Virus record (IMG/VR): IMGVR_UViG_3300025607_000090
Coordinates: 1 to 55,170 of that record
Source of the DNA: a virus
Lineage: Duplodnaviria; Caudoviricetes
Strand: one strand, 5' to 3'
Length of the DNA stretch: 55,170 nucleotides
The notes below the pieces were generated by a model. The model ran no database searches and had not been told where the DNA came from. It saw only the letters and a program-made list of their open reading frames with translations. Positions 10,501-55,170 of this stretch are shown piece after piece. A program made the position numbers and the translations under genes. Position 1 is the stretch's first letter. Each line of letters starts with the position of its first letter.

Positions 10501-10584
10501 ATTTAACGCCCCTCTAATAAGTGAACCAAGGCTGGTATGACAGCCTTGGTGAATCTTAATTTAGAGGCTTGTGATCTGTTGGCT
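10501..10584 (-). repeat. attC-like integron cassette site (left array)
   Basis: Minus strand: R'' AGCCAAC overlapping the stop codon, CCTCTAA/TTAGAGG stem, ACCAAGGCTG/CAGCCTTGGT hairpin, R' GTTAAAT. Confidence 0.8.
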
Positions 10585-11788: not shown

Positions 11789-11820
11789 GCAGCTAATATT
11801 TGTATATCAAACATGCTCAT
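11789..11820 (-). other. attI-like cassette entry site (left array)
   Basis: ATGAGCATGTTTGATATACAAAT-ATTAGCTGC; near-copy of 52088-52118; TTAGCTG complements the HNH cassette's R'' CAGCTAAC. Confidence 0.65.
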
Positions 11821-12088: not shown

Positions 12089-12116
12089 GGCGGTTCAAGT
12101 CCCCCCGTCCACACCA
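12089..12116 (+). other. tRNA 3'-end fragment (tRNA-Leu-like att core), not a full tRNA
   Basis: GGCGG-TTCAAGT-CCCCC T-arm (one mismatch), 7-nt acceptor strand, ACCA end; no D or anticodon arm upstream. Confidence 0.75.
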
Positions 12117-12122
12117 AAATTA

Positions 12123-12873: not shown

Positions 12874-12874
12874 A

Positions 12875-12937
12875 GTTAACAATGCTAAACCTTTTTTGGT
12901 TTATTGTTATGGACTTATTGAGTTTAGACTGCTAAAC
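12875..12937. promoter_or_regulatory. OR operator region (three operators)
   Basis: GTTTAG-ACTG-CTAAAC (12922-12937), GTTAAC-AATG-CTAAAC (12875-12890), degenerate copy at 12899-12914. Confidence 0.8.
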
Positions 12938-31056: not shown

Positions 31057-31058
31057 TT

Positions 31059-33866: not shown

Positions 33867-33871
33867 TAACG

Positions 33872-34576: not shown

Positions 34577-34599
34577 CCAGCACTACACCATCAATTTTA

Positions 34600-35037: not shown

Positions 35038-35068
35038 ACCTTCACTTTCTGCAATATAGAGATAATCC

Positions 35069-39540: not shown

Positions 39541-39627
39541 AATCAGGCTCCCCGTCGGGAGCTAAGATCTGCATAATAGTACCCCCTTCTAGCCAAACCC
39601 GACAAAAAAAGGTAGTATTTCCCCACT

Positions 39628-40038
39628 ATGGAAAACTTCACTCTGGTTAAAGCGGAGTGGTCAGAACATCGACAACGGCTGAAAGAGCCGATTGAACGTA
39701 TTGGCAAAGTAGCCGATGACCACGACCTTTTCACCAATATCGACAAAGCCTGCTCAAATGAGCAGGCTTTTTTGTTTCTATCGCCTGATGGTTTTATGGT
39801 TTTACGACCTCGCCATCAGTCCGGCGAACCTTATATTGAGATTACGGTTGCCTCCTGCCATGGCGGCAATGCCGTTATTCGCTATCAAAACTTAATAGCT
39901 GAACTTGCCCGGCGTGGTAACGCTAAATTTATCGAGTTTCTAACAGTTCGTAAGGGTTGTGAGAAAGTCGCGCCACGTCATGGTTGGATTAAGCATGGCT
40001 ACCATCAACATCTCGCCATCTGGCGATATTATCTCTAG
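39628..40038 (+). CDS. GNAT-like virion assembly protein
   Basis: Position before the ejection genes; AFLF...DGF.VL.P, F.T.RKG. Confidence 0.55.
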   Translation: MENFTLVKAEWSEHRQRLKEPIERIGKVADDHDLFTNIDKACSNEQAFLFLSPDGFMVLRPRHQSGEPYIEITVASCHGGNAVIRYQNLIAELARRGNAKFIEFLTVRKGCEKVAPRHGWIKHGYHQHLAIWRYYL

Positions 40039-40047
40039 GAATCCTAC

Positions 40048-40677
40048 ATGGGTAAATCTAGCAGCACAGTTAAAGAAACCGCTTACGAAAAAGAGCTAGC
40101 CGCAGTTTACAAGGAGCAGTGGGATTATTACGAGGCAAACATTGTTCCAGTCGAAAACCAAGTCATAGGTGAGGCTAAAGCTAGCAATGACAAGTCGGTA
40201 TATCAAGGCATTAGTGATGATGTAAATCTTGGTTATCAGCGATCGTTTGCCGAGGCAAGTGGTGGAACCGCAGAAAACCTAGCGGCCAATGGCGTAGATC
40301 CAAGTTCAGGGAAATTTAAAAGTGCGATTAGCTCGTTAGCAGACATTGAAGGTTCTGTGTCTGCTGATGCTACAGCTCGTTCTGAAGTCGCAGGGCAAGA
40401 ACGTTATATCGACAAAATGAGTAATGTCATGGCGATGGGCCAAGGTGAGGCGCAAGAGTCGGTTTCATCATTAAGCGATATTGCAGCCAAGTCACAGAGT
40501 AAAGCTTTTAACGACGCCAGCATTTCACAGCAGAATAAAAATAGCACATTAGGATCAATTGGCGCTGTCGCAGGTGCTTACGCCAGTAATTCGCTAAATA
40601 GTCCTGCAGTCACTTATAGTAATACTGGCACTGTCGGAGCTGGATTTAATGACAATAACGACTTTAGAGGCCGCTAA
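40048..40677 (+). CDS. Internal virion / ejection protein
   Basis: MGK.SS start, GVDPSSG, Gly/Ala C-terminal helix. Confidence 0.65.
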   Translation: MGKSSSTVKETAYEKELAAVYKEQWDYYEANIVPVENQVIGEAKASNDKSVYQGISDDVNLGYQRSFAEASGGTAENLAANGVDPSSGKFKSAISSLADIEGSVSADATARSEVAGQERYIDKMSNVMAMGQGEAQESVSSLSDIAAKSQSKAFNDASISQQNKNSTLGSIGAVAGAYASNSLNSPAVTYSNTGTVGAGFNDNNDFRGR

Positions 40678-40679
40678 AC

Positions 40680-41126
40680 ATGAGCTATGAAGATAGGAAC
40701 TATGGCAGCAACAAAAACGAGGTAGAAGTATCAGCGCCAAAATCGACAAGCTATCAAGACACGATGGCGCAGTTGACCCGCGATCAATGGACTGATTTTC
40801 AAACTCGCTACTTACCCGTTCAGAATGATCTTTTAGCCTTAGCAAGTAATGACACTTTGCTAACAGAGCAGTTGGGCCGTAATCAGGCCAACGTCGACAA
40901 TTCGTTTAACCTGGCTAAACAAAACGAATCTATGCGCTTGGGGCGTTACGGTCTAACTCCCGATAGCTCAGCACAAGATAATACCAACAATTCGCTATTA
41001 AAAAATCTGACTAACGCCTCGGTAAACAATGAAACACGTTCGTCCGTAGATGACTTACAAAACAAGATCATTACAGGGCAAGGTGGCGCACCTAAAACAC
41101 TTGCAGACATAGGGGGTAATGGCTAA
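40680..41126 (+). CDS. Internal virion protein
   Basis: Gln/Asn-rich helical protein in the ejection cluster. Confidence 0.6.
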   Translation: MSYEDRNYGSNKNEVEVSAPKSTSYQDTMAQLTRDQWTDFQTRYLPVQNDLLALASNDTLLTEQLGRNQANVDNSFNLAKQNESMRLGRYGLTPDSSAQDNTNNSLLKNLTNASVNNETRSSVDDLQNKIITGQGGAPKTLADIGGNG

Positions 41127-41374
41127 TGAGCTATTCAATCATGCAAATGGGTAACAGCACCAAAGCTCAATCCAAGCAGGCGCTAAACACGCTAGCAAGT
41201 ATGGAGAATAATCGCGAAATGGTTAACGATCAAAATAAACAGCAAAAGAAAAGCAATCAAATGAGCGGTGCTGCGTCTGGCGCGATGATGGGCTACATGA
41301 TGGCGGGTTCTGCAGCTGGGCCAATGGGCATGGCTGTTGGTGCTGCTGTTGGTTTGTTAGCTGGTTCACTTTAG
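41126..41374 (+). CDS. Glycine-zipper ejection protein
   Basis: GAASGAMMG...GPMGMAVGAAVGLLAG. Confidence 0.7.
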   Translation: MSYSIMQMGNSTKAQSKQALNTLASMENNREMVNDQNKQQKKSNQMSGAASGAMMGYMMAGSAAGPMGMAVGAAVGLLAGSL

Positions 41375-41383
41375 GAGAAGTAC

Positions 41384-42532
41384 ATGGGTTCAGCATTAGT
41401 ACAAGGCGCATTGCAGGGTTTTAACATGATGGAGCGGCACCAATCGCGCATAAACGGTGAGCGGCGTCTATCAGATATGGATAAGCGTAACGAACAACGC
41501 TATCAAGATGGTCAAGGGCGGCTTGCTGATATGGATAAGAGAAATGATGATCGCTACCAAGACACTCTCGAGTATCGCAATCAGACAACGGCTAACACCG
41601 CCGCCTACCGTAAACAGACCGCAGATAATACTGAAAAATATCGTGATTGGCAGATAGCGAAATCCGAAAGTGATACGCAGTGGACTAAAGATCAGAAAAT
41701 GCTTGGCACTGGGTGGGATTACTTTCGAGTCAATGGTCAAGTAGCACTAGAGCATGAAGAAATGTTTAAGCGGAATGCTGGTTATGATCCCCGTACTTTT
41801 CAAAAACCTGAAATGCGCGCAGCGGTCAAAGGGCTTGGTGAAAAAATGCAACAAGCCGTATCTAGCGGCAAAGTAAGCGAAGTAAACAACCCCGAAACCA
41901 TCAAGCTATTTGACACGGTATTTAAAGACAAGTTTTCGTCATCTATTGGCAAGTTCGATCATGTGGTTGGCGCTGAAATCAACGATGTTAGTTTTGCTGG
42001 TTTTGTACCTACCGACAGTAAGGACGGCAGTGTTTCGTTTGCGTTAAAAGTAACGTATGACAACGGAAAGAGCGAAATAAAACCCATGACTCAGGGGCGG
42101 TCAACCGACCAAGACGATCCTGTCTTGCAAATGAAGCCTGAAGAATTAGTTAACACCATTCGTAGCAAGATGATGATGGCGGATATGATTGAACGGCCGG
42201 AATACTGGGACAAGATGGGTCATGGCATTGGGAAGTCTCTTAGTAAACGCAAGACGGATGGGCAGAATCAAAAGGATAAATCACAGGCAGCTTATCGCAA
42301 ATAAAGCGCAGCCATAGAGCGTGATATGACCAATGCAATGGCAAAAATTCAAAGCGATCCAAATATTTTTAGTAAAGAAGATCGGGCAGCTGCTATTGGG
42401 CGAGTTGAATCCGTATTTGGTGAACGAAAAGCAGCATTAGCGAAAACTTATGGGCTAAAGCCAGTCACCGAGAAAAACGGCGTTAGCGATGATGAGTTGA
42501 TGGCGTTCCTAAACGAGTCAATGCCAGATTAA
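41384..42532 (+). pseudogene. Ejection protein interrupted by an in-frame TAA at 42302-42304 (ORFs 41384-42304 and 42326-42532)
   Basis: Both ORFs are in the same frame and the frame is open on both sides of the single TAA. Confidence 0.6.
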
Positions 42533-42604
42533 AACAATTAAACTCTAAATCAACAATCCCGCTGGCGAATAACCGCCAAAAAACACCTGATAAGAGAATA
42601 GCTA

Positions 42605-45600
42605 ATGACTACCAGAGCTGAATATTTAATTGAGCAAAACAACCAAGGTTTATTGACTGGACGAGAAAAGCAAATGTTCGACATCGCCGTTGAACGAGGA
42701 TTGATTAAGCCGCCACAAGTAGATACAGAAACCACAGAGTCAGAAGATAAAGGCGGCATGACGGCGGCTTTCGGTGCTGGTGTGGATAAAGTTCAGGAAC
42801 TTGGCTATCGTGCTGTCAAAGGCTTTACTGATGTTGGCGCTCCAGAAGAAGAACAAACAAACGTTGTTGGTCGCGCCATCGGACAGGGTGGGTCACTGTC
42901 TAAGTGGGCGCAAGAAGGTATCGATCGCAACATTGATGAACAAAAGGATTACGAACCAACCGTTGGATCTTATAAGGACGTAGACTCGATTAACGATGCT
43001 GGCTCTTATGTTGGTGAAATGGTTGCTGGCTCTTTGCCATATATGGCTGCTGCAGTGTCGGGTGTCGGTGCTTTTGGTATGGCTGGCGGTTTGTCAGAGG
43101 AAGCTTACGACAAACAGCCAGAAACAGAAAAGAACGCTGCTCGCGCCGTGGCGTCCGGTGCTGGTCAAATGGCGCTTGAGCGTCTTGGCATTAGAGGCTC
43201 AATGGGGCAAATTGGCAAAGACATTCTTAAAGATGGTGTATTAAAGACTGCTCAGCGCTATGGCAAGGGCGATCTTGTTGATGCAGTTAAAGATCCAAAC
43301 GTTGCCCGTCGTTTGCTTAAAGGTGCGACTTGGGAAGGCATGACGGAAACTGGCCAAGAAGCATTGGCCCAATGGGGCGCGGGTGCGTCACTTGATCAAA
43401 TTCATGGGCTAGATGAAGCATTTGTTGGAGGCTTTGTAGTTGGTGGTACTGTCCGTTCAGGAGCCGAAAGCGCTCAGCGCATTATCACTTGGCAACAAAA
43501 AGCGGGCGAAGTGGCCGAGAATGGTATTAACGCACTTGTTGAACAAGGTATACCTCAAGATCAAGCTATAGAACAGGTTCGAGCGCAAATTATTGAATCA
43601 GCGATAAAACAAGGGCAGAGTGAAGCTGTGGCAGCCGGTACCGCTGCTAGAATGATGAAAGAGCGTTATGGTATCGACCATGAAATATTTACCCCGGTAG
43701 CCAATGACGTTGCTGAGCAGCGCAGAGTTTGGGAGGAAAACCGCGATCAAAAAATGCAAGCGAACCGCCAGCGCTCTGAGCAAATGCGGGTAAAACATGA
43801 AACTCAAGATTTAGACGATGCACTTAATGGTGATTCGGCGCCAACAGTTGACGATCTTTTAGGTGATGCGGGTAACATTCAAGGCCCATTACCAAGCGAG
43901 CAAGTAGCGACTGAAATCGTAGAAGATGCTCCGTTATCCGTCAGCGAGCGTCGCGAACTAATGAATCTGCGCCTTGAGAAGCAACGAGTTGAAGGCGGTG
44001 TTGGTAGCATACAAGACAAGTTGTCTGAAAAAAGCGCGCCAACGGCAACTGATCTTATTGGCGAAGCAGGCTATGTTCAAGGTCCGGTACCGAGTGAGCA
44101 ATATGCTAATGTTCAAAACACAGTTGTTGATCCGTTTAATGGTGAGCAGTCAATAAAACCCACCGAGGAAAGCGCAGCTGTACCGCCAACGGTAGCGGAG
44201 CGCCGACAGGCATTGAATGATAAACTGGAAAAACAGCGAGTCGAGGGCGGCATTGGTGATGCTCAGCAGAAGCTTGCTGGAGACACTGCACCAACGGTTA
44301 GCTATTTACTAGGCGATGCTGGCCGCGTTAAAGATCCAGATGAAATAACTGATTACAACAATAGCGACGATAGTATATTAGCGCCGCCTGATATTCCGAT
44401 AATTAAATCAAACGAAGATAATAAAGCGCCCTCAATCGAGGGCGTTGTTGTTTCTGAAGGGGAATTACCAATAGATTTGGCAGAGAACTCTATTGGGAAG
44501 GTGGAGGCTCCGGTGCCAAGCTTAGAAACCAACAATAAAATTGATATAGCGGCGCATGAAGCTGCTACTAGCCCAACGAATGACCAGGCTGAACCAAGCC
44601 AGGCGCAAAAGGATGCTGGCAATTATAAAATGGGGCGTATAGAGCACAGCGGCTTTAAAATTGGTATAGAAAACCCACAAGGTTCAACGCGCTCGGGTCA
44701 AGACAAAGGTGGAAAGGATTGGTCTGTGACCATGAAATCACACTATGGCGACATCACTGGCACCAAAGGGGCTGATGGTGATGCGTTAGATGTGTTTGTT
44801 AAGCCATCAACTGAGCATAGCGATAAAGTATTTGTGATTGATCAAATAGAGCCAAGTAATGGCAAGTTTGATGAACATAAGATCATGATGGGCTATGACT
44901 CTAAAAAAGAAGCTCAAGAGGCATATTTAGCTAACTACGGTAAGGACTGGCAAGGTATTGGTAACATTACCGAGTCACCGATCAGTGAGTTTAAAGATTG
45001 GGTTAAAAACGGCGAAACGACAAAACCATTTACGGTCACGCCTCAGCCAGGCTCTAATCAGGCTAAAATCGATAATTTGTCCAGTAGCTTAGAAACCAAG
45101 CAAGCTGACAACAGCGTAGTATCCTATAAAAGGGAAGTCGCCAGCACTGTCATTCGCACAGGTAATAAACCCATCAAAGGCATTAGCCTTGTCGAGGCCA
45201 AAACCATTGCTAAAGAGTTTATGGATGAATACAACGGAAATATCAAACTAGCTCCCATTGTTATAAAGAATCAAGAGGATATTTATGGATCAGAGGGAAC
45301 TGCAGAAAAATTCGGAGTGCTCAAAGGTGCGTACCATGGCGAACAAGGCGTATTTACCCTTACCGCGAGTAATCTGTCAAATAGGGCTGACGCGCGAGAA
45401 ACGCTACGGCATGAAATACTCGGTCACTACGGTTTGGACACGTTTAAAAAAGCAGATAAACAGGCTGTTATCGACAAAATAATTGCATCAGAGAATGAGC
45501 CAAACCTAAAAGTCATTTGGGGTAAAATTAAAGCCGATAGCCACTACAAAACATTAACACCTGAACTTCAAGCCGAAGAAGTGTTTGCGCACATAATAGA

Positions 45601-48565
45601 AAATCATCGCAATGGCTTTCAGCGCATTTATGATCGAATCATTGCATGGTTAAAGCAAGCAATGCGTAAGGCAGGGTTAAATAAGTACCCATCATCAGTT
45701 AGCGAACTTCACCGCCTAGCTGAAACTATTTCCAAGCAGATTAAACAGGGCAAGCAAGGTCGAGCTCAGTCGTTAGGATCTAGTAGTAAAACCCCTGAGC
45801 AAAAAAAAGAATCGACCATGTTGCGCAGGGCTACCGAAAATTCATCAATAGCAGACGAAGAAAAATATTCTAAAGATTACTTTATTCGCCGCGTTCAAGA
45901 CAAATTCCAGCGTCTACTTGTTATCCAGCGTTCTTTAGCCGTCAACGAAGATAACGACGCTTACATGGCAGAGGAGGCCTTTCACGGAAAAGTAAGTGAG
46001 GATTTGCGAAAACTAGAGCTCGAGCGTACAGATAAGATAGCTAACACCATGGCTAAGCATCAATTATCACAAGATGAAGTTGATTTATACTTAATTGCAA
46101 AGCACGCCAAAGAGCGTAATGCTTATATCGATACCATCAATCCAGAACTAAAAGGCGAAGGCTCAGGCATGAGCAATGAGCAGGCGCAATCGATTTTAGA
46201 TAAGGCCATTTTTGAAGAAAAATACCCCGCACTAGAAGCTGTCTCGGATTTGGTTTATTCGATGCTTAAGCAAAACCGAAAAATGATGGTTGAGTTTGGC
46301 CTTGAAGCGCAGGATGCGATCGATAACTGGCAATCTCAATATAAGTTTTATGTACCGCTAAAAGGTTACGCTAAAGATGAAGAAACCCACGCTAAGGATG
46401 ACAACGGTAAACAAGTAACACGCTATGGTGCTGGCAAGGGCTTTAACATTAAAGGTCGCGAAACCATAAAGGCGATGGGGCGTCGTTCTTTAGCTGAATC
46501 GCCGTTGCTTCATTCCATCCAAGATACGACTCAAGCGATTATTCGCGCACGTAAGAATGAGGTTGGTAATACTTTCCTAAAATTAGTAAACGACAACCCA
46601 GATAGCGATTTATGGGAAGTGTTTACCGCCCAAAAGCCAGACATAACGCGTGGCGAAATAACTAAGGACGGTAAAGCAACAATCGGTCCGGTCAAGATGA
46701 CAGCAATGGCCATGAAAAACAGTGATGATTATTTCAAGGTTAAAGTTGATGGAGTGGAGAGTTACATCAAAATTAAAGATGTTGTGCTCAAAGATACTAT
46801 GGCCAACTTAGGTGTTGACGAAATGGGAGCCTTTGTTAGGAATATTGGAAAGGTTACACGAACACTAAGCGCTTTAGTTACAACTTGGAACCCTGAATTC
46901 ATGCTGACTAACTTTACGCGCGACGTTCAAGCGGCGGTTGCTAATGTATTAGCTGAAACTCAAGTCGCCGATGGCAAGGCACTTAATACTGAAAATCTGG
47001 CGCGCAAGATGGTTGGATCCATGCCTAAGGCGATGGTGGTTTTACGCCAGGGATTCAGAAACAACAAGTTTGATGGCAGCGGTAAGTTTAATGATCCTAA
47101 ATGGAGTAATTACCTAAAAGAATTCCTCGAGTCTGGCGCTAAAACTGGCTGGGTTAATCAAAAAGACGTTAAGGAATTGGCCAGCGAACTCAAAAGCTCA
47201 ATATCGCGCGCGAGCAAGACTAAGGCTGGTAAGGTTCGGCGCCTTGGTAAAAACGTCGCAGATTTTGTTAGTGACTATAATGATATCGTTGAAAACTCGG
47301 CACGTTTTAGTGTTTATTACCACGCCAGAGAGCAGGGTATAAGTGTAAAGCAAGCCAGTAGCTTAGCCAAAAACTTAACGATTAACTTTAATCGTAAAGG
47401 TGAAATGGGCGCTACGATGAATGCCCTATACATGTTCTCGAATGCCAGCGTTCAAGGTACGGCTAATATGTTACGCGCACTGGGTACCCCAAAAGACAGA
47501 TCTAAGTCGATGTGGGATCCTAAATTCTACAATTTATCGCAAAAATTGGCCGTGGGTTCGATTTTTGGCACGATTGCCATGGCACAAGTCATGCGAGAAA
47601 TGGGCGGTGATGATGAAGATGGCATTGCATTTTACGATAAGGTACCCGATTACGTTAAGGCAACCAATTACGTGATTATGACAGGTGGTAAGGATTACAT
47701 AGCGATACCAATGCCCTATGGCTATAATTTTTTGGCAGGCTTGGGTCATTCTTTAGATGGTTTAATTCAAGGCGAGTCAGTGGGAAGGCAAGCGACCAAA
47801 ATAGCATTGTCGGCGGTTGGTACCTTTTCTCCACTAGGTATTACAGAATCTGAAAATACGGCAGTATCAATGGTTAAAATGGCGGCTCCGACCGTTATAA
47901 AACCATTCGTTGAAATGGCCGTAGACGAGAAGTTTACCGGCGGGAATATCTACCCTGATCAGCGTGGCTACAATGTTAAAAAAGCCGATGCCAATCGTGG
48001 GGGTAAGCATACTTGGGAGTGGTCTAAAAACTTTACTTCTTGGCTAAATGAAGCCAGCGGTGGTACTGAATATAAAAGCGGAGGCATGGATATTGCGCCT
48101 CAGTCTATTGATCACATGGTTAAGTTTATGGGGGGAGGTGTATTACAGTTCGGGTTGCGCTGGCAGAACTTAGCTGCCAAGGCTATGGCAGGGAAAGAAA
48201 TTGAATCCCGAGACATTCCTTTTTGGCGGCGCTTCCATAAGCAGTTAAATCCTAAGCAAACGATTGGCGAATTCTATGATGTTAAAGAAAGTTTAGCGGC
48301 TTACAAAGCTGATTTAAATTACATGCGCGGTGCTGACCGGGCTAATTATCTATCAAAGTACAGAAATCATCTGATGTTAAATAATTACGCTTCTGGTATC
48401 GATAAGCAATTACGCGCACTTAATAAGCGAAAGCGGGGCATTGAAGCTAGCCGTTTATCAGATAATGAAAAAGAGATAAGCTTGCAGCGTATTGAAGATC
48501 TAAAAATTGACCACACTATGCGCTTCGCCAAGAAACGCCATCAGTTGGGAGTTAAGTATCTTTGA
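42605..48565 (+). CDS. Large polyvalent / ejection protein (inorganic pyrophosphatase-like, zincin HExxxH, LPD38-like C-terminus)
   Basis: GNYKMG...IENP.GS.RSG...HYG...GADGD.LDVF...FDEHK; LRHEILGHYG..AEE; VPDY.K..N....IPMPYG. Confidence 0.85.
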   Translation: MTTRAEYLIEQNNQGLLTGREKQMFDIAVERGLIKPPQVDTETTESEDKGGMTAAFGAGVDKVQELGYRAVKGFTDVGAPEEEQTNVVGRAIGQGGSLSKWAQEGIDRNIDEQKDYEPTVGSYKDVDSINDAGSYVGEMVAGSLPYMAAAVSGVGAFGMAGGLSEEAYDKQPETEKNAARAVASGAGQMALERLGIRGSMGQIGKDILKDGVLKTAQRYGKGDLVDAVKDPNVARRLLKGATWEGMTETGQEALAQWGAGASLDQIHGLDEAFVGGFVVGGTVRSGAESAQRIITWQQKAGEVAENGINALVEQGIPQDQAIEQVRAQIIESAIKQGQSEAVAAGTAARMMKERYGIDHEIFTPVANDVAEQRRVWEENRDQKMQANRQRSEQMRVKHETQDLDDALNGDSAPTVDDLLGDAGNIQGPLPSEQVATEIVEDAPLSVSERRELMNLRLEKQRVEGGVGSIQDKLSEKSAPTATDLIGEAGYVQGPVPSEQYANVQNTVVDPFNGEQSIKPTEESAAVPPTVAERRQALNDKLEKQRVEGGIGDAQQKLAGDTAPTVSYLLGDAGRVKDPDEITDYNNSDDSILAPPDIPIIKSNEDNKAPSIEGVVVSEGELPIDLAENSIGKVEAPVPSLETNNKIDIAAHEAATSPTNDQAEPSQAQKDAGNYKMGRIEHSGFKIGIENPQGSTRSGQDKGGKDWSVTMKSHYGDITGTKGADGDALDVFVKPSTEHSDKVFVIDQIEPSNGKFDEHKIMMGYDSKKEAQEAYLANYGKDWQGIGNITESPISEFKDWVKNGETTKPFTVTPQPGSNQAKIDNLSSSLETKQADNSVVSYKREVASTVIRTGNKPIKGISLVEAKTIAKEFMDEYNGNIKLAPIVIKNQEDIYGSEGTAEKFGVLKGAYHGEQGVFTLTASNLSNRADARETLRHEILGHYGLDTFKKADKQAVIDKIIASENEPNLKVIWGKIKADSHYKTLTPELQAEEVFAHIIENHRNGFQRIYDRIIAWLKQAMRKAGLNKYPSSVSELHRLAETISKQIKQGKQGRAQSLGSSSKTPEQKKESTMLRRATENSSIADEEKYSKDYFIRRVQDKFQRLLVIQRSLAVNEDNDAYMAEEAFHGKVSEDLRKLELERTDKIANTMAKHQLSQDEVDLYLIAKHAKERNAYIDTINPELKGEGSGMSNEQAQSILDKAIFEEKYPALEAVSDLVYSMLKQNRKMMVEFGLEAQDAIDNWQSQYKFYVPLKGYAKDEETHAKDDNGKQVTRYGAGKGFNIKGRETIKAMGRRSLAESPLLHSIQDTTQAIIRARKNEVGNTFLKLVNDNPDSDLWEVFTAQKPDITRGEITKDGKATIGPVKMTAMAMKNSDDYFKVKVDGVESYIKIKDVVLKDTMANLGVDEMGAFVRNIGKVTRTLSALVTTWNPEFMLTNFTRDVQAAVANVLAETQVADGKALNTENLARKMVGSMPKAMVVLRQGFRNNKFDGSGKFNDPKWSNYLKEFLESGAKTGWVNQKDVKELASELKSSISRASKTKAGKVRRLGKNVADFVSDYNDIVENSARFSVYYHAREQGISVKQASSLAKNLTINFNRKGEMGATMNALYMFSNASVQGTANMLRALGTPKDRSKSMWDPKFYNLSQKLAVGSIFGTIAMAQVMREMGGDDEDGIAFYDKVPDYVKATNYVIMTGGKDYIAIPMPYGYNFLAGLGHSLDGLIQGESVGRQATKIALSAVGTFSPLGITESENTAVSMVKMAAPTVIKPFVEMAVDEKFTGGNIYPDQRGYNVKKADANRGGKHTWEWSKNFTSWLNEASGGTEYKSGGMDIAPQSIDHMVKFMGGGVLQFGLRWQNLAAKAMAGKEIESRDIPFWRRFHKQLNPKQTIGEFYDVKESLAAYKADLNYMRGADRANYLSKYRNHLMLNNYASGIDKQLRALNKRKRGIEASRLSDNEKEISLQRIEDLKIDHTMRFAKKRHQLGVKYL

Positions 48566-48625
48566 TGGAGTTACAATTAAATTGTTTGGAGAAAGCAAGC
48601 TGCCGTTAAAGGGATTAAGCAAAGA

Positions 48626-48946
48626 TTAATTTGTTAGTTTTTGTTTACTCATAAGTTTTTTGATAAGAAATATTGGCGAGTAAAAAACGTATAGAGCAAT
48701 CAGTCCGCTAAATATAAACCATGGAATTTCTATTACGTACACTATATTGCCAGCAAAGCCTGAGTTGAATATGTAGCAGCTTGCTATAAAGCTGCTAGAT
48801 AAGGTGTAAAGAAAAATACGCTTTTCAGGGTTGTTTATCACCCTATTGATTAGCCAGCCAAACAGGATATAAGTGAGCAACATTACTATTACGCGCAAAA
48901 GCGCCTTAGAGCTGACATAAACAATTTTAGTCTTTTCCCTATTCAT
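48626..48946 (-). CDS. Three-TM membrane protein (moron, possible superinfection exclusion)
   Basis: Hydrophobic, AT-rich, convergent with the ejection gene. Confidence 0.55.
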   Translation of the reverse strand: MNREKTKIVYVSSKALLRVIVMLLTYILFGWLINRVINNPEKRIFLYTLSSSFIASCYIFNSGFAGNIVYVIEIPWFIFSGLIALYVFYSPIFLIKKLMSKQKLTN

Positions 48947-49118
48947 CGTACTTTTTCTAATACTAAACTGATATCAAAGCAACCAGAAAATGCATGTTGT
49001 AAGTGAGCCACCAAGATACAACACCAAAATTAGAATATTCTATTTATTTAACACATTGTTTGTTATAGATTATTAGTATAATCTAGTATGAATTATGAAA
49101 TGTCGGATCTCGGGGTTA

Positions 49119-49149
49119 TCGAGCAATTCGACTAATATACTGTTATACG
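49119..49149 (+). other. attI-like cassette entry site (right array, first)
   Basis: GAGCA-N16-GTT; GACTAAT-ATACT-GTTATAC simple-site layout; TATAAT at 49077 upstream. Confidence 0.6.
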
Positions 49150-49162
49150 TTTTAGGGGCTAT

Positions 49163-49582
49163 ATGATTTCAATATCTCAGAAAATAAGAACATTGTTTGA
49201 ATTAGGCGGGGAGAAAATTGATCTTCCTTACTTTTCTGGGTTTCCAAGAAATGCGTGTGAGGGAGCATCACTATTTCTTGGCGCTACTCTAAAAGAAATA
49301 TTTCCAATGTCTCATATAGAGTATCTGAAAGGATATGATGAAAACGGGGCTATTCATTTTTGGCTAGAAGTTGACGCTAAGGTTTTCGATATCACAGCGG
49401 ATCAGTTTCCTGAAATACCAGAACCACTTTTTGGAGTTGCTCATCAACCTTTAGCTGAAATTTATCGTGATATTGAAAGGAAAGAAATAACTGATGCGCT
49501 CAGAGAATCTGATGTGACAACAGAAACATATAAACATTCGCTAATGATGGACATTAGGCATTATTTAAGCATAAACGTATAA
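49163..49582 (+). CDS. Cys-His-Asp (transglutaminase/papain-like) protein (cassette cargo)
   Basis: FPRNAC, HFWLE and DITADQF motifs. Confidence 0.75.
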   Translation: MISISQKIRTLFELGGEKIDLPYFSGFPRNACEGASLFLGATLKEIFPMSHIEYLKGYDENGAIHFWLEVDAKVFDITADQFPEIPEPLFGVAHQPLAEIYRDIERKEITDALRESDVTTETYKHSLMMDIRHYLSINV

Positions 49583-49623
49583 ACAAAAACCTCAATCGTA
49601 CGGCTTTTAGGTTGGTGTTAGGT
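49577..49623 (+). repeat. attC-like site 1 (very short)
   Basis: GTATAAAC-AAA-AACCTCAA...ACGGCT..TTAGGTT-GGT-GTTAGGT; stop codon inside R''. Confidence 0.75.
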
Positions 49624-49657
49624 TATTACCAGATTAATTCACTTTAAGGGGAAATAC

Positions 49658-50116
49658 ATGAGTTGGACTTTTGAGAGCATAAAAACATCACTCGAAGAAA
49701 TGACGTTTGAACTAGATGATGAGAAAAGTTGTTCTAATGGAAGAGTAGTTAAGAGTAATTATTTGCCGCTTTCTAAAGATGTAAATGAAGTTAATACCGT
49801 CGCATCATACATTTATGGCGAAGACAACGTTAATGCTGATTTGATACAGCTTTCAGCTAGTAAAGGGAATAAAAATGATTTAAGTGAAACTGAATTAAAT
49901 TTTTATGCGCTTGTAAAAAAAATAACCTCACTTTTTGCTGATACAGATTTTAATCTTCCTGACATATTTAATTTGGGTTCTGAAGATTTCTTAGTCGGTA
50001 ATTACACATTACGAGTTGATAATGAAGAAAACCAATGTAATGCTTTTATCGCACTGTCGAGTTCTTTTGAGCAGGCAATGGATGTTCGTTCAAGACACTT
50101 ATATTCCGCAGAGTAA
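49658..50116 (+). CDS. Acidic hypothetical protein (cassette cargo)
   Basis: AGGGG RBS; bounded by GTTAGGTTATT and AATAACCTAGC. Confidence 0.75.
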   Translation: MSWTFESIKTSLEEMTFELDDEKSCSNGRVVKSNYLPLSKDVNEVNTVASYIYGEDNVNADLIQLSASKGNKNDLSETELNFYALVKKITSLFADTDFNLPDIFNLGSEDFLVGNYTLRVDNEENQCNAFIALSSSFEQAMDVRSRHLYSAE

Positions 50117-50119
50117 ATA

Positions 50120-50221
50120 ACCTAGCAAGAACCTAAACCAGACGGCTAGAACTATCACACTTTTAGCAACAAAGACGCAAAAAACTGCGCCAGCACGTCG
50201 CAGGTTAGGTTGGCGTTGCGG
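50120..50221 (+). repeat. attC-like site 2
   Basis: Near-copy of 50994-51094; AACCT/AGGTT stem; GACGCAAAAAACTGCGCCA shared. Confidence 0.85.
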
Positions 50222-50399
50222 CTGGATAATTTATAGTTTTGTTTAAAACAGGTAAAAAACGAGCTCCTGTAACGCAAAATAAGCGACGCACTCAGTGTGG
50301 GTAATACATTTTATACCCTTATTTTGACGTGTTTTTGTAATTTTTTATAAATTCTACAGCCTTATAGTTAGCTGCCAATGTTTCAGCAGTTCACTACTA

Positions 50400-50879
50400 C
50401 TAAATTTTTACAAATTTAGATGGGTCCGAATTAACTATGGTGTTTATTGTTGATTGAGGTTTTCTGTAATCACTTGCAAGCATATCTTGAGTGACGTCAG
50501 TGCTACCGTGATACGCGTGATAAATCTCCTTTTTTTCATTATCGTTTAATTTTTCTTTACGTGTAGGTAAATCTGAAAAACGACTTTTTACAGCTTTATC
50601 AAAGGTTGCTGCTGTTTCAATTGTTTTCTCTACAGCTCCTATATTTTTAGTTATCTCCATAACCTGATTCCAATTCTGCTCGCGTGAATACTTGCGTAAT
50701 TGTCGGTTTAGATCGTCATTTAGTATTACGGCATGTTGTTTTAGTTCACGTGCCGATTTTTTTATTTTTGCTTCTTCAGAAGCAGAAAGTTCTTCTTGGT
50801 TAATTTGTTCAAAGCGTTGATTTACTACTTCAGGGTTTAGTAAACTAGAAGGGTTGTTGGGGTCAAATAGTCCGCTCAT
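50400..50879 (-). CDS. Coiled-coil protein with C-terminal HTH, inverted inside a cassette
   Basis: TQDMLASDYRKPQSTINTIV HTH-like; lies between GTTAGCTGC (50367) and GCAGCTAAC (50992). Confidence 0.7.
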   Translation of the reverse strand: MSGLFDPNNPSSLLNPEVVNQRFEQINQEELSASEEAKIKKSARELKQHAVILNDDLNRQLRKYSREQNWNQVMEITKNIGAVEKTIETAATFDKAVKSRFSDLPTRKEKLNDNEKKEIYHAYHGSTDVTQDMLASDYRKPQSTINTIVNSDPSKFVKI

Positions 50880-50899
50880 TGAATTTCTCTCTAATAAAT

Positions 50900-50923
50900 T
50901 GATAATCTGATATCAGGTTATCA
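50900..50923. promoter_or_regulatory. Imperfect palindrome upstream of the HTH gene (candidate operator)
   Basis: TGATAATCTGA-TA-TCAGGTTATCA. Confidence 0.5.
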
Positions 50924-50993
50924 GAAATCAGATTGCTGTCAAATTATATTTAACAATCAGTTGGTCAGCGAATTTATTCATGAGAGAGTAAGC

Positions 50994-51094
50994 AGCTAAC
51001 AAGCACCTCAACTAGACGGCTAAAGCTGTCACATTTTTTAGCAAAGAGACGCAAAAAACTGCGCCAACACGCCGCGGTTAGGTGGGTGTTAAGC
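50994..51094 (+). repeat. attC-like site 3 (best preserved)
   Basis: R'' AGCTAAC, CACCTCAAC/GTTAGGTG L-box stem with an extra C, central hairpin, R' GTTAAGC. Confidence 0.9.
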
Positions 51095-51140
51095 ATTCTA
51101 CGCTTGTTTCAACAAACGTAATTTAAATGGGAATTGAGTA

Positions 51141-51881
51141 TTGAAATTTAAAGATATAAAACCTGAAGTTTTAGGAGTGATTTATGGCCTTCTTGTATTA
51201 AACCTCTGGTATGTATCCTCATTGGCAATAGAGCACAGAATTGTGCCAAGTACATACGACTACTTTTTGCAAGCTATTGTAGTATTGTCTGCAGCATTTT
51301 TCGGTTCCTTTTCTGCATTCTATTTAAACACCAGAAAAGAAAAACTTGGGAAAATACAAGGGAATATTTCCGCATTAAACTCTGCTCTGTTTTTAACGCT
51401 AAGGCAAATAAATGCTCTGTTAAATCTAAAAAAAGCAATAGAGCCTCTAGAAAGTGACAATATACGGTTTCTAAAGTTACCAGCAATGTATGCTGCGGAT
51501 TATAGCGATTTAAAAATAGAGTTAAATCGCTTGGAATTTTTGCTAAAAGACCACCCAAATTTATTGTTAAATTTATCTATTGAGCAAGGGAGGTTCGAAA
51601 ATGCAATTCGAATTACCAATATGAGAGCAGAATTCCATCACGAAGATCTGCAGAAATCTCTAAACGATAATAACTTTTGCATTGAGCATCCCTCTCTTGA
51701 AGAATTAGTTACAGCAGTAGGCCCTAGAGTGGTCGGTAACGCAATTAAACTTACCGATGGTATGTATGAACAAATATTTTTAAGTGTCGACAGTTTAACT
51801 GAGGTTCACGAAAGACTTTTTGAAATAGCAAAAGAGAACTTTCCAAATGAGCGATTCGTTAAATTTCAACAAAATGCCTAA
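51141..51881 (+). CDS. Two-TM membrane protein with helical cytoplasmic domain (cassette cargo)
   Basis: TTG start; bounded by GTTAAGCATT and AATGCCTAAT with the stop inside R''. Confidence 0.75.
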   Translation: MKFKDIKPEVLGVIYGLLVLNLWYVSSLAIEHRIVPSTYDYFLQAIVVLSAAFFGSFSAFYLNTRKEKLGKIQGNISALNSALFLTLRQINALLNLKKAIEPLESDNIRFLKLPAMYAADYSDLKIELNRLEFLLKDHPNLLLNLSIEQGRFENAIRITNMRAEFHHEDLQKSLNDNNFCIEHPSLEELVTAVGPRVVGNAIKLTDGMYEQIFLSVDSLTEVHERLFEIAKENFPNERFVKFQQNA

Positions 51882-51931
51882 TAAGAAGCTCAACCAGACG
51901 GCTAACCCCACCTAAAAAGGTAGTGTTACTG
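51876..51931 (+). repeat. attC-like site 4 (left arm, truncated)
   Basis: GCCTAAT-AAGAA-GCTCAACCAGACGGCTAA matches the left arms of sites 2 and 3. Confidence 0.7.
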
Positions 51932-52087
51932 CTTTGGGGATACATTCTGACAAGCTCATTTATTGATTGATATCGAATATGGCTCATATATCAGTGCAAC
52001 TCACAAGTAATGCTTGCCATAAGTGACATAAGAGTTCATTTTGTAACGCTAATTTACAGGATTTCTGCGTATATCTAAAATAGGTAA

Positions 52088-52118
52088 ATGAGCATACCTG
52101 TTATACAAATGTTATGCC
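52088..52118 (+). other. attI-like cassette entry site (right array, second)
   Basis: ATGAGCATACCTGTTATACAAAT-GTTATGCC; near-copy of minus-strand 11789-11820. Confidence 0.7.
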
Positions 52119-52136
52119 TAAGGAAGTTAATCACGT

Positions 52137-53891
52137 ATGAATCAAGATTGGATTCTCCAAAAAAAAGAGACTCGTCGCACTTTTTCAAAATCAACTTGGG
52201 TTCCTTTGAGAGCTGCTTTTGGTAACGAAAAAGGTAACGTTAAAAAGATAGGTTATACAAACGAATTTTTTGGATGTGGTTCTGTTGCATTTTCTCCGGA
52301 TCATCGCGATATCGCGGAAAAATTGAGTTGGAGTGATATCGGAATCAGCTCAACTATCGGTCCATATGCATACGAAGATGGCTACTACTCAACCATAGAT
52401 GAATATCAATATCATGATAAAGAGCCGATCGGTGTTCATCTCGTCCTTGAATTATCTCTACCTGTAGTCGGTGGGCGACAATGGACATTGACCCCTGATC
52501 TTGTTGCTGCACTCCGCCTCATAAAAGAGGGAGATAATTGGGTAAGGCCGGAAGAAAATTTTGTAGTAGTGGCTCGGGAAGTTCTTGATGAAAAAGGTGA
52601 TCAGCGCCTGATCGAAATCAAGAGAGAATTTCTTCTCGACTATTTAGCTGCTAGGAACCTAGCTCTCCGACTTTCTTACTACCGTCAACGAGTGGAAAAT
52701 GTAACCGCTCTTGAAACCAGTGAATACGCTGACTTGGAAAACCATCAAGAAGAGCGCGATGATGGACGATATGAGTTACTGATTCGTGATGTAAATGACG
52801 TTTTTGGCGGAAGCTGGGCGATGTTCCGTGCTTGGCGAACTGATGTTGATGAAGATGAAGACGCACCGGTGATGGGACGAGAAAATAACGAAAACACTGA
52901 TTATGAAAAATCTGAGGGAACTCGTGGTGGGTTTCATGGCGTACGAGTCGAGGGCGAGTTTTGGCGCGATGAATGGATAGAGCACAAAGGCGTAAGTAAT
53001 CGCGTTCGTGGGGATGTAGACACAAACTTGCCTCAATTTATAGTTGAGACTGATGGCATGCGTTTGGCGTCTGCCGAGTTAAACAACGAAGATGTTGGTC
53101 GGTGGCTCTGGTTTCGCTCAGGTATAGTAAATGAGCTTCTAGGGCTTCGCGGATTTTCTCTCAATTGGTATACGGCACAAACAGGTGAAATTAAATCCAC
53201 ATCTGGGTATTCAATTCATATTGGTATAAATATTTCAGATTTAATAACAGTCTACGCCTATGACATTGCTCGCCTGCCGGCTTGGGAACAGCATATTTGG
53301 GCAGCTCAGAATGTTGTTCCTGATGGAAAGGTTTCAAATGAATTATTAGCAGCACAGGTTAAAGCTGAACCTGCCTCTACCCATGCGGTTGAGGAGCTTC
53401 TTTTCAAGGTGATGGAGATGCTTGAGGGCGGGTTTAGGCAGACATTCAATGTTTCACTTTACTCACATGATCTAGATCGCACTGAAACTGAAAAGTATAT
53501 CTCCCGTTTCGCGAGCAAGGATCAAGCATCATTGCTGAGATTGGCAAAAGAGCTAGTTCGTGTTTTTTCCGACCGGCTTGATGTACGTGAACTTCGAAAA
53601 CTATCAACACACTTAAATAAGGATAAATTGGGCTCAAATAAGCTCCTGCAGGATGTACTTGCTCAGAAAGTTGGCGCTGATAAGGCCCGGGAAGTCTTTG
53701 GCCCAATTGTGGGGGCGTATGATATGCGAATAGGTGACGCTCACCCTACTAGCTCCAAGATTGGAGATGCTTTGAAGCTCGCTGGAATCGACGATAGTGA
53801 GTCATTTTTGCGACAAGGTGAGCAATTGATTTCCAATTTTAGCCAATCGATTTGGTGGGTTGGGAAACTACTATTTGAAGAACCAGAGTGA
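52137..53891 (+). CDS. 584-aa protein with C-terminal RxxxxH (HEPN-like) motif (cassette cargo)
   Basis: Helical C-terminus with LGSNKLL...YDMRIGDAH; bounded by GTTATGCC and GGCATAA. Confidence 0.7.
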   Translation: MNQDWILQKKETRRTFSKSTWVPLRAAFGNEKGNVKKIGYTNEFFGCGSVAFSPDHRDIAEKLSWSDIGISSTIGPYAYEDGYYSTIDEYQYHDKEPIGVHLVLELSLPVVGGRQWTLTPDLVAALRLIKEGDNWVRPEENFVVVAREVLDEKGDQRLIEIKREFLLDYLAARNLALRLSYYRQRVENVTALETSEYADLENHQEERDDGRYELLIRDVNDVFGGSWAMFRAWRTDVDEDEDAPVMGRENNENTDYEKSEGTRGGFHGVRVEGEFWRDEWIEHKGVSNRVRGDVDTNLPQFIVETDGMRLASAELNNEDVGRWLWFRSGIVNELLGLRGFSLNWYTAQTGEIKSTSGYSIHIGINISDLITVYAYDIARLPAWEQHIWAAQNVVPDGKVSNELLAAQVKAEPASTHAVEELLFKVMEMLEGGFRQTFNVSLYSHDLDRTETEKYISRFASKDQASLLRLAKELVRVFSDRLDVRELRKLSTHLNKDKLGSNKLLQDVLAQKVGADKAREVFGPIVGAYDMRIGDAHPTSSKIGDALKLAGIDDSESFLRQGEQLISNFSQSIWWVGKLLFEEPE

Positions 53892-53912
53892 TATGAATAA
53901 CCAGTTCAGCGG

Positions 53913-53963
53913 GCATAAGGCAATATAGTCAATCGGACGGCTAAAGCTGTCGCTGCGTTAATT
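53913..53963 (+). repeat. attC-like site 5 (degenerate)
   Basis: GCATAA(GG)C-AATAT-AGTCAATCGGACGGCTAAAGCTGTC shares GACGGCTAAAGCTGTC with site 3. Confidence 0.7.
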
Positions 53964-54135
53964 CTCATAGTTCCCATACAAACCCTAATGCCTAAACCAA
54001 CATTGGCACGATAAATTCTATGGCGCTTTATGCCCCATAACGCCTTAGGCTGAAACATTAATTATGCAGGATGAATGTGCTTGTAATCCATTGTGTGTAA
54101 ACTGTCGGTTAACTCGCATTAACTGACGTAAAACA

Positions 54136-54819
54136 ATGAAAAATCTATTCTTAGTATTTCTGCTTGTGCCGACGCTAGCATTCGCAGCAGATCCATTGAG
54201 CTTTGGCCGGGCTAAAACTCAACTTAAAAAAATTTACAAAGCCGCGCCGGAGTCATTCTATTGTGGCTGTGATATAAAATGGCTGTCAAAAAAGAAGTTA
54301 GTGCCGGTTTGGAACTCATGTGGTTTTAAGCCGCGTAAACAACATAAACGCGCCTCTCGCATCGAATGGGAACACGTAGTTTCAGCATGGGAGTTTGGGC
54401 ATCAACTACAATGTTGGCAGAACGGTGGTCGTAAAGCATGTAAAAAGGTTACTGCGTTTAAAGCCATGGAAGGAGATTTACATAACTTGGTACCTGCGAT
54501 CGGTGAAGTGAACGGTGACCGCTCAAATTTCAGGTTTAATATGATCTCCGGTGAGAAGCGTGTTTATGGTCAATGCGATGCTGAAGTTTATTTTAAGGGG
54601 CGAGTATTTGAACCAGCGCCAAATGTGCGCGGCGACATAGCCCGGACGTACTTTTATTTTTCGCAGCAATACGGATTGAAGATCAGCAAGAAACAGCGAC
54701 AGCTATTTACGGCTTGGAACAAATTAGATCCAGTTGACGCCAGTGAATGTTTAATTCACGATAAAAAAGCGCGAGTGCAGGGGAATGTTAACCCGTTTGT
54801 AGAAAATAATTGTAACTAG
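54136..54819 (+). CDS. endA: Endonuclease I family secreted/periplasmic DNase (EndA/Dns/Vvn-like)
   Basis: Signal peptide (AFA), [45 protein letters not shown]. Confidence 0.93.
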
Positions 54820-54840
54820 AATTAATAGGGAAATGAAAGT

Positions 54841-55170
54841 ATGGCATGGGAAGTTGTTTTATATTTGATCAGTGGTGCTATTTTGGGTCTTTTGATCCAT
54901 CAGGCAGTTATGTATGGGGCATGCTATCTGTTTGATTCAACAACAGCTGAAAGCTGTGTTTTGTTTAGTATCGTAATATTGATGTTAATAGTTGGTTTTA
55001 AATTTAATTTTTCTTTACAGCAATTTTTCTTCACTATACAAGAAACTGATAAATCAGAATATGGCTTCGTTGCTCCATTATTCGTTATGGTTAAATATTT
55101 TGGATTTGTTGCTAGCGCGGGGTTAGGCATTAAATCTTCACATACCTATTTCTTTCGGAGTCCAATGTAA
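54841..55170 (+). CDS. Three-TM membrane protein
   Basis: Hydrophobic ORF ending at the window edge. Confidence 0.55.
   Translation: MAWEVVLYLISGAILGLLIHQAVMYGACYLFDSTTAESCVLFSIVILMLIVGFKFNFSLQQFFFTIQETDKSEYGFVAPLFVMVKYFGFVASAGLGIKSSHTYFFRSPM

Follow-up and report, generated by a model that had tools for sequence, protein, structure and literature searches.

An integron cassette array lacking an integrase in the record of a 933W-like prophage

The window analyzed here (55,170 bp) is the entire IMG/VR provirus record IMGVR_UViG_3300025607_000090 (CheckV completeness 100), and at 49.1–54.0 kb it holds five single-gene units, each ending in a repeat of one attC family. The evidence supports the units as integron gene cassettes and the repeats as attC sites of one homogeneous family, as in sedentary integron arrays. 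An inner pair of cassettes, at 10.5–11.8 kb, sits inside the phage, so the phage certainly does carry integron cassettes. With about even confidence, we regard the 49.1–54.0 kb locus as a genuine, largely fossil, integrase-less cassette array that arose through an integron integrase (IntI) acting in trans and that leans to the phage side of the prophage boundary. On this account the cassettes would derive from the pool that a marine gammaproteobacterium keeps in a sedentary chromosomal integron, and IntI would have inserted them by attI × attC and then attC × attC recombination. Most of them would later have been immobilized by point changes in the AAC of R'', by the loss of right halves, and by a miniature inverted-repeat transposable element (MITE) in one GTT.

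The repeats as members of an attC family

A sequence-only reading of this DNA had described five related repeats, one behind each unit, two of them full palindromes. A repeat search recovered all five where they had been placed, the two full imperfect palindromes of ~100 nt being those at 50120–50221 and 50994–51094. Direct-repeat families D2 (49579, 50121, 50995, 51877) and D3 (50134, 51008, 51890, 53929) surround ...CAAC-N-AGACGGCTA, and family D6 (49607, 50205, 51078) is TTAGGTKGGYGTT.

A search pattern reaching from the conserved left core to the right end was found in one other provirus record (G001) and in 35 metagenome contigs, 33 of which belong to the attC family by eye; the other two, L078 and L107, are unrelated and were dropped. 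In these outside sequences the sites are densely packed into arrays and share one orientation; their R box, TAAC/GTTA, is invariant, their stems covary, and each cassette has complementary ends specific to it. Thirty-one distinct outside sites align at 89% mean identity, with TAAC in 29 and AAC in 30 of them; the triplet preceding TAAC and the sequence following GTTA differ between sites. Between neighboring sites in contigs L075, L098, and L099, the sequence that follows one GTT is the reverse complement of the sequence that precedes the next AAC. The RNAalifold consensus consists of a 4-bp R box, an unpaired spacer, and an L box in which one base is bulged; one pair covaries (AU 18, CG 12). 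An 18-mer from the attC center had no match in IMG/VR.

A covariance model, R1, was built from the 31 outside sites, with no sequence from the window, and run on the window with filters off. It is our own version of the covariance-model check that the sequence-only reading had proposed, and it matches four of the five repeats at E ≤ 0.02 (Table 1); the fourth repeat gave no match at E ≤ 10. Of the unrelated matches in the window, none exceeds 11.9 bits (E 0.58). R1 also matches attC3 on its opposite strand (22.0 bits, E 0.00044), as expected of an imperfect palindrome. Applied to 31 of the 35 contigs (L078 and L107 left out as unrelated, L083 and L091 as duplicates of L102), R1 returned 119 matches, which correspond to 85 sites counted per contig, with a single orientation throughout each contig; L103 has seven sites in 4.2 kb. 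In the alignment of the 119 matches, which is fitted to the model and includes both strands of some sites, 95.5% of cells pair versus 79.4% in shuffles, the R box is invariant, and 22 of 28 pairs have compensatory changes, a number reached by none of 500 shuffles. The bottom-strand fold of attC3 (−18 kcal/mol, z −2.3) has an R stem and an L stem separated by an unpaired spacer, the L stem bearing a bulged G, and ends distally in a hairpin. The attC architecture, R''-L''...L'-R' with an unpaired spacer and a bulged L'' base, is thus found in the consensus fold, in the attC3 fold, and in the covariation, and the proposal of a homogeneous attC family of the sedentary type is borne out by the outside arrays and by R1.

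The family is also connected with integron integrases. Among 401 family-level genomes, one (G410) gave a family-site match in a pattern search in which the reversed pattern gave three control matches. G410 carries three intI genes above the NCBIfam cut-off, and the attC sites adjoining them, which are of other subfamilies, score 36.8, 20.8, and 18.7 bits with R1; the weaker sites of the window fall within this range of intI-linked attC sites (18.7–36.8 bits). The three genes encode full integron integrases and are located on small contigs (C99, C110, and C112; L134–L136) with distinct attI regions that have their own direct repeats. Family contig L092 carries a truncated intI beside a family site, its 72 C-terminal residues being 78% identical to a G410 IntI. 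In contig L102 (2026–5498), a family attC is followed by a pair of genes for 567-aa and 543-aa proteins, ATPase- and helicase-like by eye.

It is hardly credible that the repeats are some other intergenic element of the repetitive extragenic palindromic (REP) or terminator type. Two terminator-like hairpins do lie inside the repeats, and the bottom-strand folds of the four sites other than attC3 are no better than those of shuffles (z −0.67, −0.13, −0.85, and +0.90). Such an identity is contradicted, however, by the family arrays, the invariant TAAC/GTTA, the covariation, the cassette-specific ends, the linkage to intI in G410, and the truncated intI of L092.

The integron integrase model TIGR02249 has no match in the 55-kb record, in keeping with the earlier statement that an integrase is lacking, and a tblastn search of the window with the three G410 IntI proteins gave no match. 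By the definition of Cury et al. (2016), two or more attC sites clustered with no intI nearby, the array is a CALIN (cluster of attC sites lacking integron-integrase); the combination of intI, attI, and cassette promoter (Pc) that makes a complete integron is not present.

Cassettes and the decay of their sites

The array is composed of two sub-arrays, 49142–51935 with four cassettes and 52111–54031 with one, each headed by an attI-like junction (Table 1). As expected for linearized circular cassettes, and as the sequence-only reading had proposed, the two ends of each unit are complementary. The family alignment sets where each cassette starts and where its R'' slot lies; on that basis an ungapped comparison finds complementarity at 21 of the 30 positions specific to a cassette (binomial 7e-6), a count attained by no set of random starts out of 50,000, and skipping one extra A of unit 1 raises it to 26 of 30. 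The stop codon TAA lies inside R'' in units 1 and 4 and directly before it in unit 2, as had been claimed for the units in general; in unit 5 it is 20 nt before R''.

Table 1. Features of the cassette array, its flanks, and the inner cassette pair (scores are those of covariance model R1; a slash marks the junction point)
Feature	Coordinates	Strand	Description
attC_B	10501..10577	-	second subfamily, R'' TCAC, after 90-aa gene 10583-10855; fold z -3.8; match 10577-10501, 19.6 bits, E 0.0025
attI-like junction B	11794..11820	-	ahead of 292-aa HNH-like gene (10901-11779)
106-aa membrane-like open reading frame (ORF)	48626..48946	-	between last virion gene and array
attI-like junction C	49119..49145	+	TAATATACTG/TTA directly ahead of cassette 1
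Cassette 1	49142..49584	+	ORF 49163-49582 (139 aa); ends GTTATACGTT and AACGTATA[A]AC
attC1	49578..49623	+	AAC and GTT present, one additional A in R''; 23.0 bits, E 2e-4
Cassette 2	49617..50126	+	ORF 49658-50116 (152 aa); ends GTTAGGTTAT and ATAACCTAGC
attC2	50120..50221	+	full-length member, R'' TAGC not TAAC; 90 bits, E 4e-25
Decayed MITE	50219..50363	+	inserted at GTT of attC2 R', parting attC2 from cassette 3
Cassette 3	50367..51000	+	ORF on opposite strand 50400-50879 (159 aa); ends GTTAGCTGCC and AGCAGCTAAC
attC3	50994..51094	+	R'' GCTAAC, R' GTTAAGC; 99.1 bits, E 6e-28
Cassette 4	51088..51882	+	ORF 51141-51881 (246 aa); ends GTTAAGCATT and AATGCCTAAT
attC4 remnant	51876..51935	+	left half only: R'' TAAT, L'', ACGGCTAA
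attI-like junction A	52088..52114	+	ATGAGCAT..TATACAAATG/TTA directly ahead of cassette 5
Cassette 5	52111..53919	+	ORF 52137-53891 (584 aa); product with beta-rich N-terminal and helical C-terminal domain
attC5	53915..54031	+	divergent: R'' TAAG, CTT for GTT; 16.5 bits, E 0.02
Endonuclease I (EndA) gene	54136..54819	+	PF04231 E 1.5e-41; phrog_6861 E 5e-54

The five sites are in very different states, and the extents first given to the repeats needed correction in three places: the fifth probably reaches 54031, beyond the former limit of 53963, the fourth is a left half only, and 50219–50363 is a MITE. The sole fully canonical site of the array is attC3. In attC1, 55 central model positions are deleted, the center having been lost between ACGGCTTTTA and TTAGGTTGG, and the left part is 91% identical to L090:3238–3271. 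The match of attC4 to family members is limited to its left 40 nt (51867–51906), the right half being absent or diverged. The outer arms of attC5, GGGCATAAGG and CTTTATGCCC, are complementary.

The ~145 nt between attC2 and GTTAGCTGC are not spacer: they form a MITE with terminal inverted repeats, 83% identical over 240 nt to a copy at L101:953–1191. The L101 element, at 953–1100, is bounded by terminal inverted repeats that are perfect over 19 bp and has GTT on both flanks, and contigs L098, L104, and L106 carry transposase-bearing copies with the same end as the MITE, at the same GTT. Recognition of the MITE restores R' of attC2 to GTTAGCT and explains the start of cassette 3 at 50367. Besides the window, four outside contigs have this insertion sequence (IS) or its derived MITE, with terminal inverted repeats starting GAGGCTGTAGAATTTAT, at the GTT of attC R' boxes.

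The R'' boxes of attC1 to attC5 read TAAAC, TAGC, TAAC, TAAT, and TAAG, and that of attC_B, the site of the inner pair, reads TCAC. Both AAC and GTT are intact in attC1 and attC3. The AAC is lost in attC2 (AGC), attC4 (AAT), and attC5 (AAG), and the GTT is lost in attC5 (CTT), absent in attC4, and split by the MITE in attC2. In the outside arrays (84 sites in 31 contigs), in contrast, AAC is intact in 82 and GTT in 81 sites. The difference in AAC, two of five here versus 82 of 84 (Fisher p 8.5e-4) or two of six with attC_B included (p 8.5e-5), is approximate, as the 84 sites include duplicates across overlapping contigs. The three sites of provirus G001 read TAAT, TCAAC, and TAGC, with AAC lost in two of them. 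To judge from these core changes, the sites of the window are attC sites by descent, of which most are probably non-functional.

Sites that are mostly likely dead fit poorly with a continuing sampling of a cassette pool. The sequence-only reading had proposed that the phage samples the pool of the host integron with IntI in trans; with attC3 the only canonical site, attC1 possibly usable, and the others damaged, this is unlikely for most cassettes. We accordingly rate as improbable a phage-borne array that is still swapping cassettes with a host integron. In its favor, attC3 is canonical, the L box, AAC, and GTT survive in attC1, each sub-array begins at an attI-like junction, and G410, with its three intI genes, is a relative of the likely host group. 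Against it, AAC is missing in three of five sites, a proper right half or GTT is missing in two, and one is split by the MITE; furthermore, no second copy or variant of the phage with other cargo was found that would show turnover. Some residual mobility is predicted: cassette 1 could move by recombination of junction C with attC1, and cassettes 2 and 3 as a block through attC1 × attC3, whereas cassettes 4 and 5 are predicted to be locked.

Array heads, the inner pair, and the place of the array

There is no attC upstream of cassette 1 or cassette 5. Junction C, ahead of cassette 1, is identical at 13 of 13 positions to an attI junction on G410 contig C112 (L136) that lies 358 nt away from where a full intI begins and is fixed by the R'' of the first cassette of that contig. 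This 13-mer is the only match in the window at up to one mismatch (0.13 expected). Junction A, ahead of cassette 5, is identical at 22 of 27 positions to junction B of the inner pair (11820–11794, minus strand), with a local score of 17 versus 13 at the 99.9th percentile of random pairs. The junction type shared by A and B is TATACAAAT/GTTA, and TATACAAATRTTA has two matches in the window with 0.35 expected. Junction A further resembles L100:733–759 (local score 20), a stretch preceding a first-in-array cassette, the end TTTACCTAAC of which complements its start; no intI lies within 750 nt of the array head of L100. By eye, L100 1–760 comprises a tRNA gene and three repeated 3'-end remnants of it, each with a terminator-like hairpin, and then the first array cassette (three ORFs). 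No intI adjoins any of the three junctions of the window, which are attI-like by their head position and, in the case of junction C, also by sequence.

The support for the attI-like reading is thin, consisting of short matches, and several results count against it. The score of junction C against the L136 attI is 13 (70 × 70), which is the 99th percentile of the null. In IMG/VR the junction type of A and B has 11 matches, about the number expected by rough arithmetic, none of them with an R1 attC. In G410 it has nine matches versus five for the control, and neither search gave an intI-linked counterpart. A promoter-like site, TTTACA-17-TAAAAT (10/12), is located at 52053–52081, just upstream of junction A; the promoter scan gave 11 sites versus 15.9 in shuffles, and no promoter claim is made.

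The inner pair (11820–10501, minus strand) consists, in order, of junction B, the 292-aa HNH-like gene (phrog_6544/7785), a rearranged attC remnant at 10838–10907 with no R1 match, the 90-aa gene, and attC_B. Homologues of attC_B, which define its subfamily, are found in array contigs L095 and L096. GCCAAC at 10584 was considered as the R'' of attC_B and rejected, since the subfamily alignment puts R'' at ATCAC, 8 nt further on. On one side the pair is flanked by genes for RecE, RecT, single-stranded DNA-binding protein (SSB), and methylase, on the other by the CI-type repressor gene, and so it sits in the immunity region. It is bracketed by a 32-nt direct repeat (10440–10471 and 11979–12010, 91% identical). 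Just left of the repressor terminator, the plus strand at ~12075–12120 resembles a tRNA 3' end, with T arm, acceptor stem, and CCA; ARAGORN found no complete tRNA anywhere in the window.

The cassettes may instead have come en bloc and not singly through IntI, either by aberrant excision of a phage near a chromosomal array or with another integrative element landing in the phage. The direct repeat around the inner pair and the nearby tRNA-like 3' end would suit such an origin, as would L100, in which the same junction type heads an array behind a tRNA gene and its three 3'-end remnants, and the available parts of Qi et al. (2023; PMC9892861) infer the capture of integron segments upon excision for V. 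anguillarum phages. We nevertheless consider it unlikely: three separate junctions fall exactly at G/TT with a cassette-complementary end, as insertion by IntI predicts, and no bracketing repeat was found around 49.1–54.0 kb.

A bolder extension of the IntI-in-trans account gives the temperate phages of this host group attI "docking" junctions without an integrase, three of them in this record, at which cassettes of the host's chromosomal integron would be captured when host IntI is expressed, and makes these phages one-way sinks under selection for the loss of AAC. The expression of IntI and prophage induction answer the same SOS signal. If that coincidence mattered, only cassettes with an attC lacking the R'' AAC would survive in the phage line. 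Phages would then be one-way sinks that fix defense and other cassettes and export them between hosts, and such selection would have left its trace in the excess of AAC loss (four of six sites here and two of three in G001, versus two of 84 in the arrays). At present we think this rather doubtful.

The record that carries the array is that of a 933W-like prophage. It begins at the stop codon of int, which encodes a 440-aa tyrosine integrase with arm-binding and SAM-like domains. The early genes run leftward and encode SSB, a recombination exonuclease, a methylase, and RecE-like and RecT-like proteins, the CI-type repressor gene is at 12223–12882, and the late genes run rightward, with terminase, portal, tail fiber, and a 1986-aa virion protein (42605–48565). 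The portal protein has 52–58% identity to those of Vibrio and Shiga toxin (Stx)-converting phages, and 24 loci hold portal relatives at 69–74% identity. The array lies between the gene for the 1986-aa protein and that for endonuclease I, and the G+C content falls from ~45% in the phage to 34–36% at 49–52 kb. The 106-aa ORF ahead of the array has no match in Pfam, PHROG, PADLOC, or NCBIfam. Rfam gave only two sub-threshold chance matches on 48500–55170.

We consider the array somewhat more likely to be part of the accessory region at the right end of the prophage than of the adjoining chromosome. Junction A in the array resembles junction B inside the phage, which holds cassettes undeniably from the same pool; there is no remnant of intI between the phage genes and junction C; and the EndA of the record has a full-length PHROG match. 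Two phage relatives (G010 and G004) carry 2.5–3.3 kb of unrelated accessory genes after the large virion gene. These are the two of ten portal-relative records searched that have a homologue of the large virion protein (41% and 26% identity). No close relative of the right end of the phage was found: megablast of 30000–49100 against the phage collection gave no match, the C-terminal 986 residues of the large virion protein had none in IMG/VR, no sequencing run containing 47000–55170 was found, and in the right ends of the phage relatives no R1 match was better than E 0.69. Neither G410 nor 22 genomes of its genus contain the phage or a close endA.

In the principal rival, the prophage happens to adjoin a chromosomal CALIN or the decayed end of the host integron: attR would lie in 48566–49119, the array would never be packaged, and the record would be over-extended. 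This possibility is a serious one, though we hold it to be the less probable. Speaking against it are the like junctions A and B, the inner pair, the absence of an intI remnant, and the variable accessory block and PHROG match just described. The following points, on the other hand, favor it and weigh against phage carriage. The right boundary of the record is a call by a predictor, and attL lies to the left of the record, so that the array is not placed relative to attL and attR. EndA, which begins 100 nt past the last site, is rare in phages, with homologues in eight of 50,697 phage records. The stretch 53973–54037, the right part of attC5 and what follows it, recurs at 81.5% identity at the end of array contig L097. 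Provirus G001 has family sites near both record ends, which fits a prophage within a chromosomal array, and the parts of Qi et al. (PMC9892861) at hand provide a precedent in a V. anguillarum prophage flanked by attC sites. The decay of the sites is equally typical of chromosomal CALINs and says nothing for a phage location.

The EndA gene itself may be host or mobile-element cargo. In a search of one genome per species, the best EndA is 69% identical (L001), and among 69 EndA loci none has the repeat motifs. The L001 gene is only 1.6 kb from a chromosomal attC (R1 32 bits) in a chromosome-scale record, a further point for the chromosomal rival. At L001 9935–12340, EndA is found beside a C-5 methylase and a 214-aa Phage_integrase fragment, the latter a point against the chromosomal rival; the cassette following the L001 attC ends ACATAAT instead of ACATAAC. 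In G001 (L072 1–2500 and L073 11600–14016), a family attC lies close to one end, and a weaker attC, beside a 360-aa integrase, lies close to the opposite end. A 338-nt segment of G001 is repeated at 1–338 and 2166–2502 (88% identical), and a 235-aa ORF contains TTVGYGD, by eye a potassium-channel filter.

Cargo and comparison with known systems

The product of cassette 1 has a weak match to YunG (E 0.005, below cut-off), and that of cassette 4 matches phrog_21267 of unknown function (E 1e-7); otherwise cassettes 1–4 gave no informative match in the protein-family and PADLOC searches. When ten proteins of the window were compared with 160 loci by tblastn, only the 584-aa protein of cassette 5 was matched, in L149. 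This protein, encoded by the largest cassette, is widespread, with 1402 homologues among 8000 candidates scored; a library clustered at the 50% identity level contains 713 related clusters. Identity is 81–93% for each of the 119 relatives listed, many of them on contigs of 1.8–2.5 kb, about the length of the cassette, and the identical protein is recorded from eight contigs, the longest of 91,473 bp. Named sources of homologues include Oceanisphaera, Vreelandella, Vibrio, Shewanella, Yersinia, Pectobacterium, and others, and some source records label them "ApeA N-terminal domain-containing". ApeA is an anti-phage protein. In the Vibrio genome G449, nucleotide similarity to the homologue is confined to the coding region. 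The gene upstream of that homologue (L149 3478–4071) is 24% identical over 200 residues to its C-terminal half, and to judge from this similarity it may be a tandem paralogue.

In 76 aligned members of the 584-aa family, D168, E402, E419, R457, R531, and H536 are invariant, R531-x4-H536 being a HEPN-type motif. The AlphaFold model (pLDDT 94, pTM 0.85) has a beta-rich N-terminal domain and a helical C-terminal domain. Residues 1–285 superimpose on the C-terminal part of Avs3 (8dgc_A 1852–2076) with Z 11.3 and a root mean square deviation of 3.4 over 165 aligned residues; the next entry has 6.4. From the model and the motif, the protein is a candidate single-protein anti-phage defense factor with an Avs3-sensor-like N-terminal fold and Rx4H. 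Other results argue less well for this assignment. The C-terminal helical domain finds HEPN chains at Z 4.0–4.7 and a Cas nuclease chain at Z 5.5, which is the noise range of the tool, and the protein has no sequence match in Pfam, PADLOC, NCBIfam, or PDB. The 76 members have no Pfam match beyond two stray ones, and Foldseek gave nothing at E ≤ 0.001 against PDB and only unnamed clusters in the Atlas.

The locus documents the leakage of the cassette pool of a sedentary integron into a temperate phage, with a pair of cassettes inside and five at the edge, one of which carries a widely travelled candidate anti-phage gene. If the contrast in AAC and GTT, which array sites keep and provirus sites mostly lose, holds more widely, it would be informative about how cassettes become fixed outside integrons. 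For the loss of R'' cores in phage-borne sites, no aimed literature search was made, and we make no claim that it is unpublished.

Several known systems invite comparison. Sedentary chromosomal integrons share the attC family in their dense, co-oriented metagenome arrays; unlike these, the sites here are few, irregularly spaced, and degenerate, with no integrase or Pc identified. Cury et al. (2016; PMC4889954), in the portion available, count 279 CALINs in genomes, with a mean of five attC sites, and offer integrase loss, rearrangement, and insertion at secondary sites as their origins. The present array is like those CALINs in having at least two close attC sites, no intI nearby, a small size, and cargo of unknown function; it differs from them, as far as that portion describes them, in its position at the edge of a prophage record, its two sub-arrays with attI-like heads, and the mutation of most of its R'' boxes. 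Loot et al. (preprint 10.1101/2022.09.11.507474) describe, in the text seen, cassette insertion outside att sites (attG), a possible IntI route into non-integron DNA at GTT-containing sites. Unlike attG as presented in that text, the junctions here resemble attI, a distinction made by this likeness and not by comparison with the attG consensus. The preprint 10.1101/2024.07.02.601686 reports, in the sections consulted, defense genes in integron cassettes and homologues of cassette systems in prophages. Cassette 5, with its single-gene candidate anti-phage protein and HEPN-type motif, is of this kind, but the 584-aa protein is not among the systems named in those sections, in which "ApeA" has no occurrence.

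Phage-borne CALINs and integrons have already been published, and the locus is a further example. The accessible passages of Qi et al. (2023; PMC9892861) list 17 CALINs and three complete integrons in 10,705 phage genomes, among them a CALIN of Shewanella prophage M16-3 that starts with its own attI, and a V. anguillarum prophage between attC sites of the chromosomal integron; five of six phage attC sites tested there recombined with IntI1. Like those cases, the present one is a temperate phage record with attC-flanked cassettes. Unlike them, so far as those passages go, it has no intI in the record, three attI-like junctions of two types, and sites that look mostly inactive. Three integrase-less attI-like junctions in one phage record, an excess of R'' core loss, and a MITE/IS that targets attC are what this locus adds to those passages.

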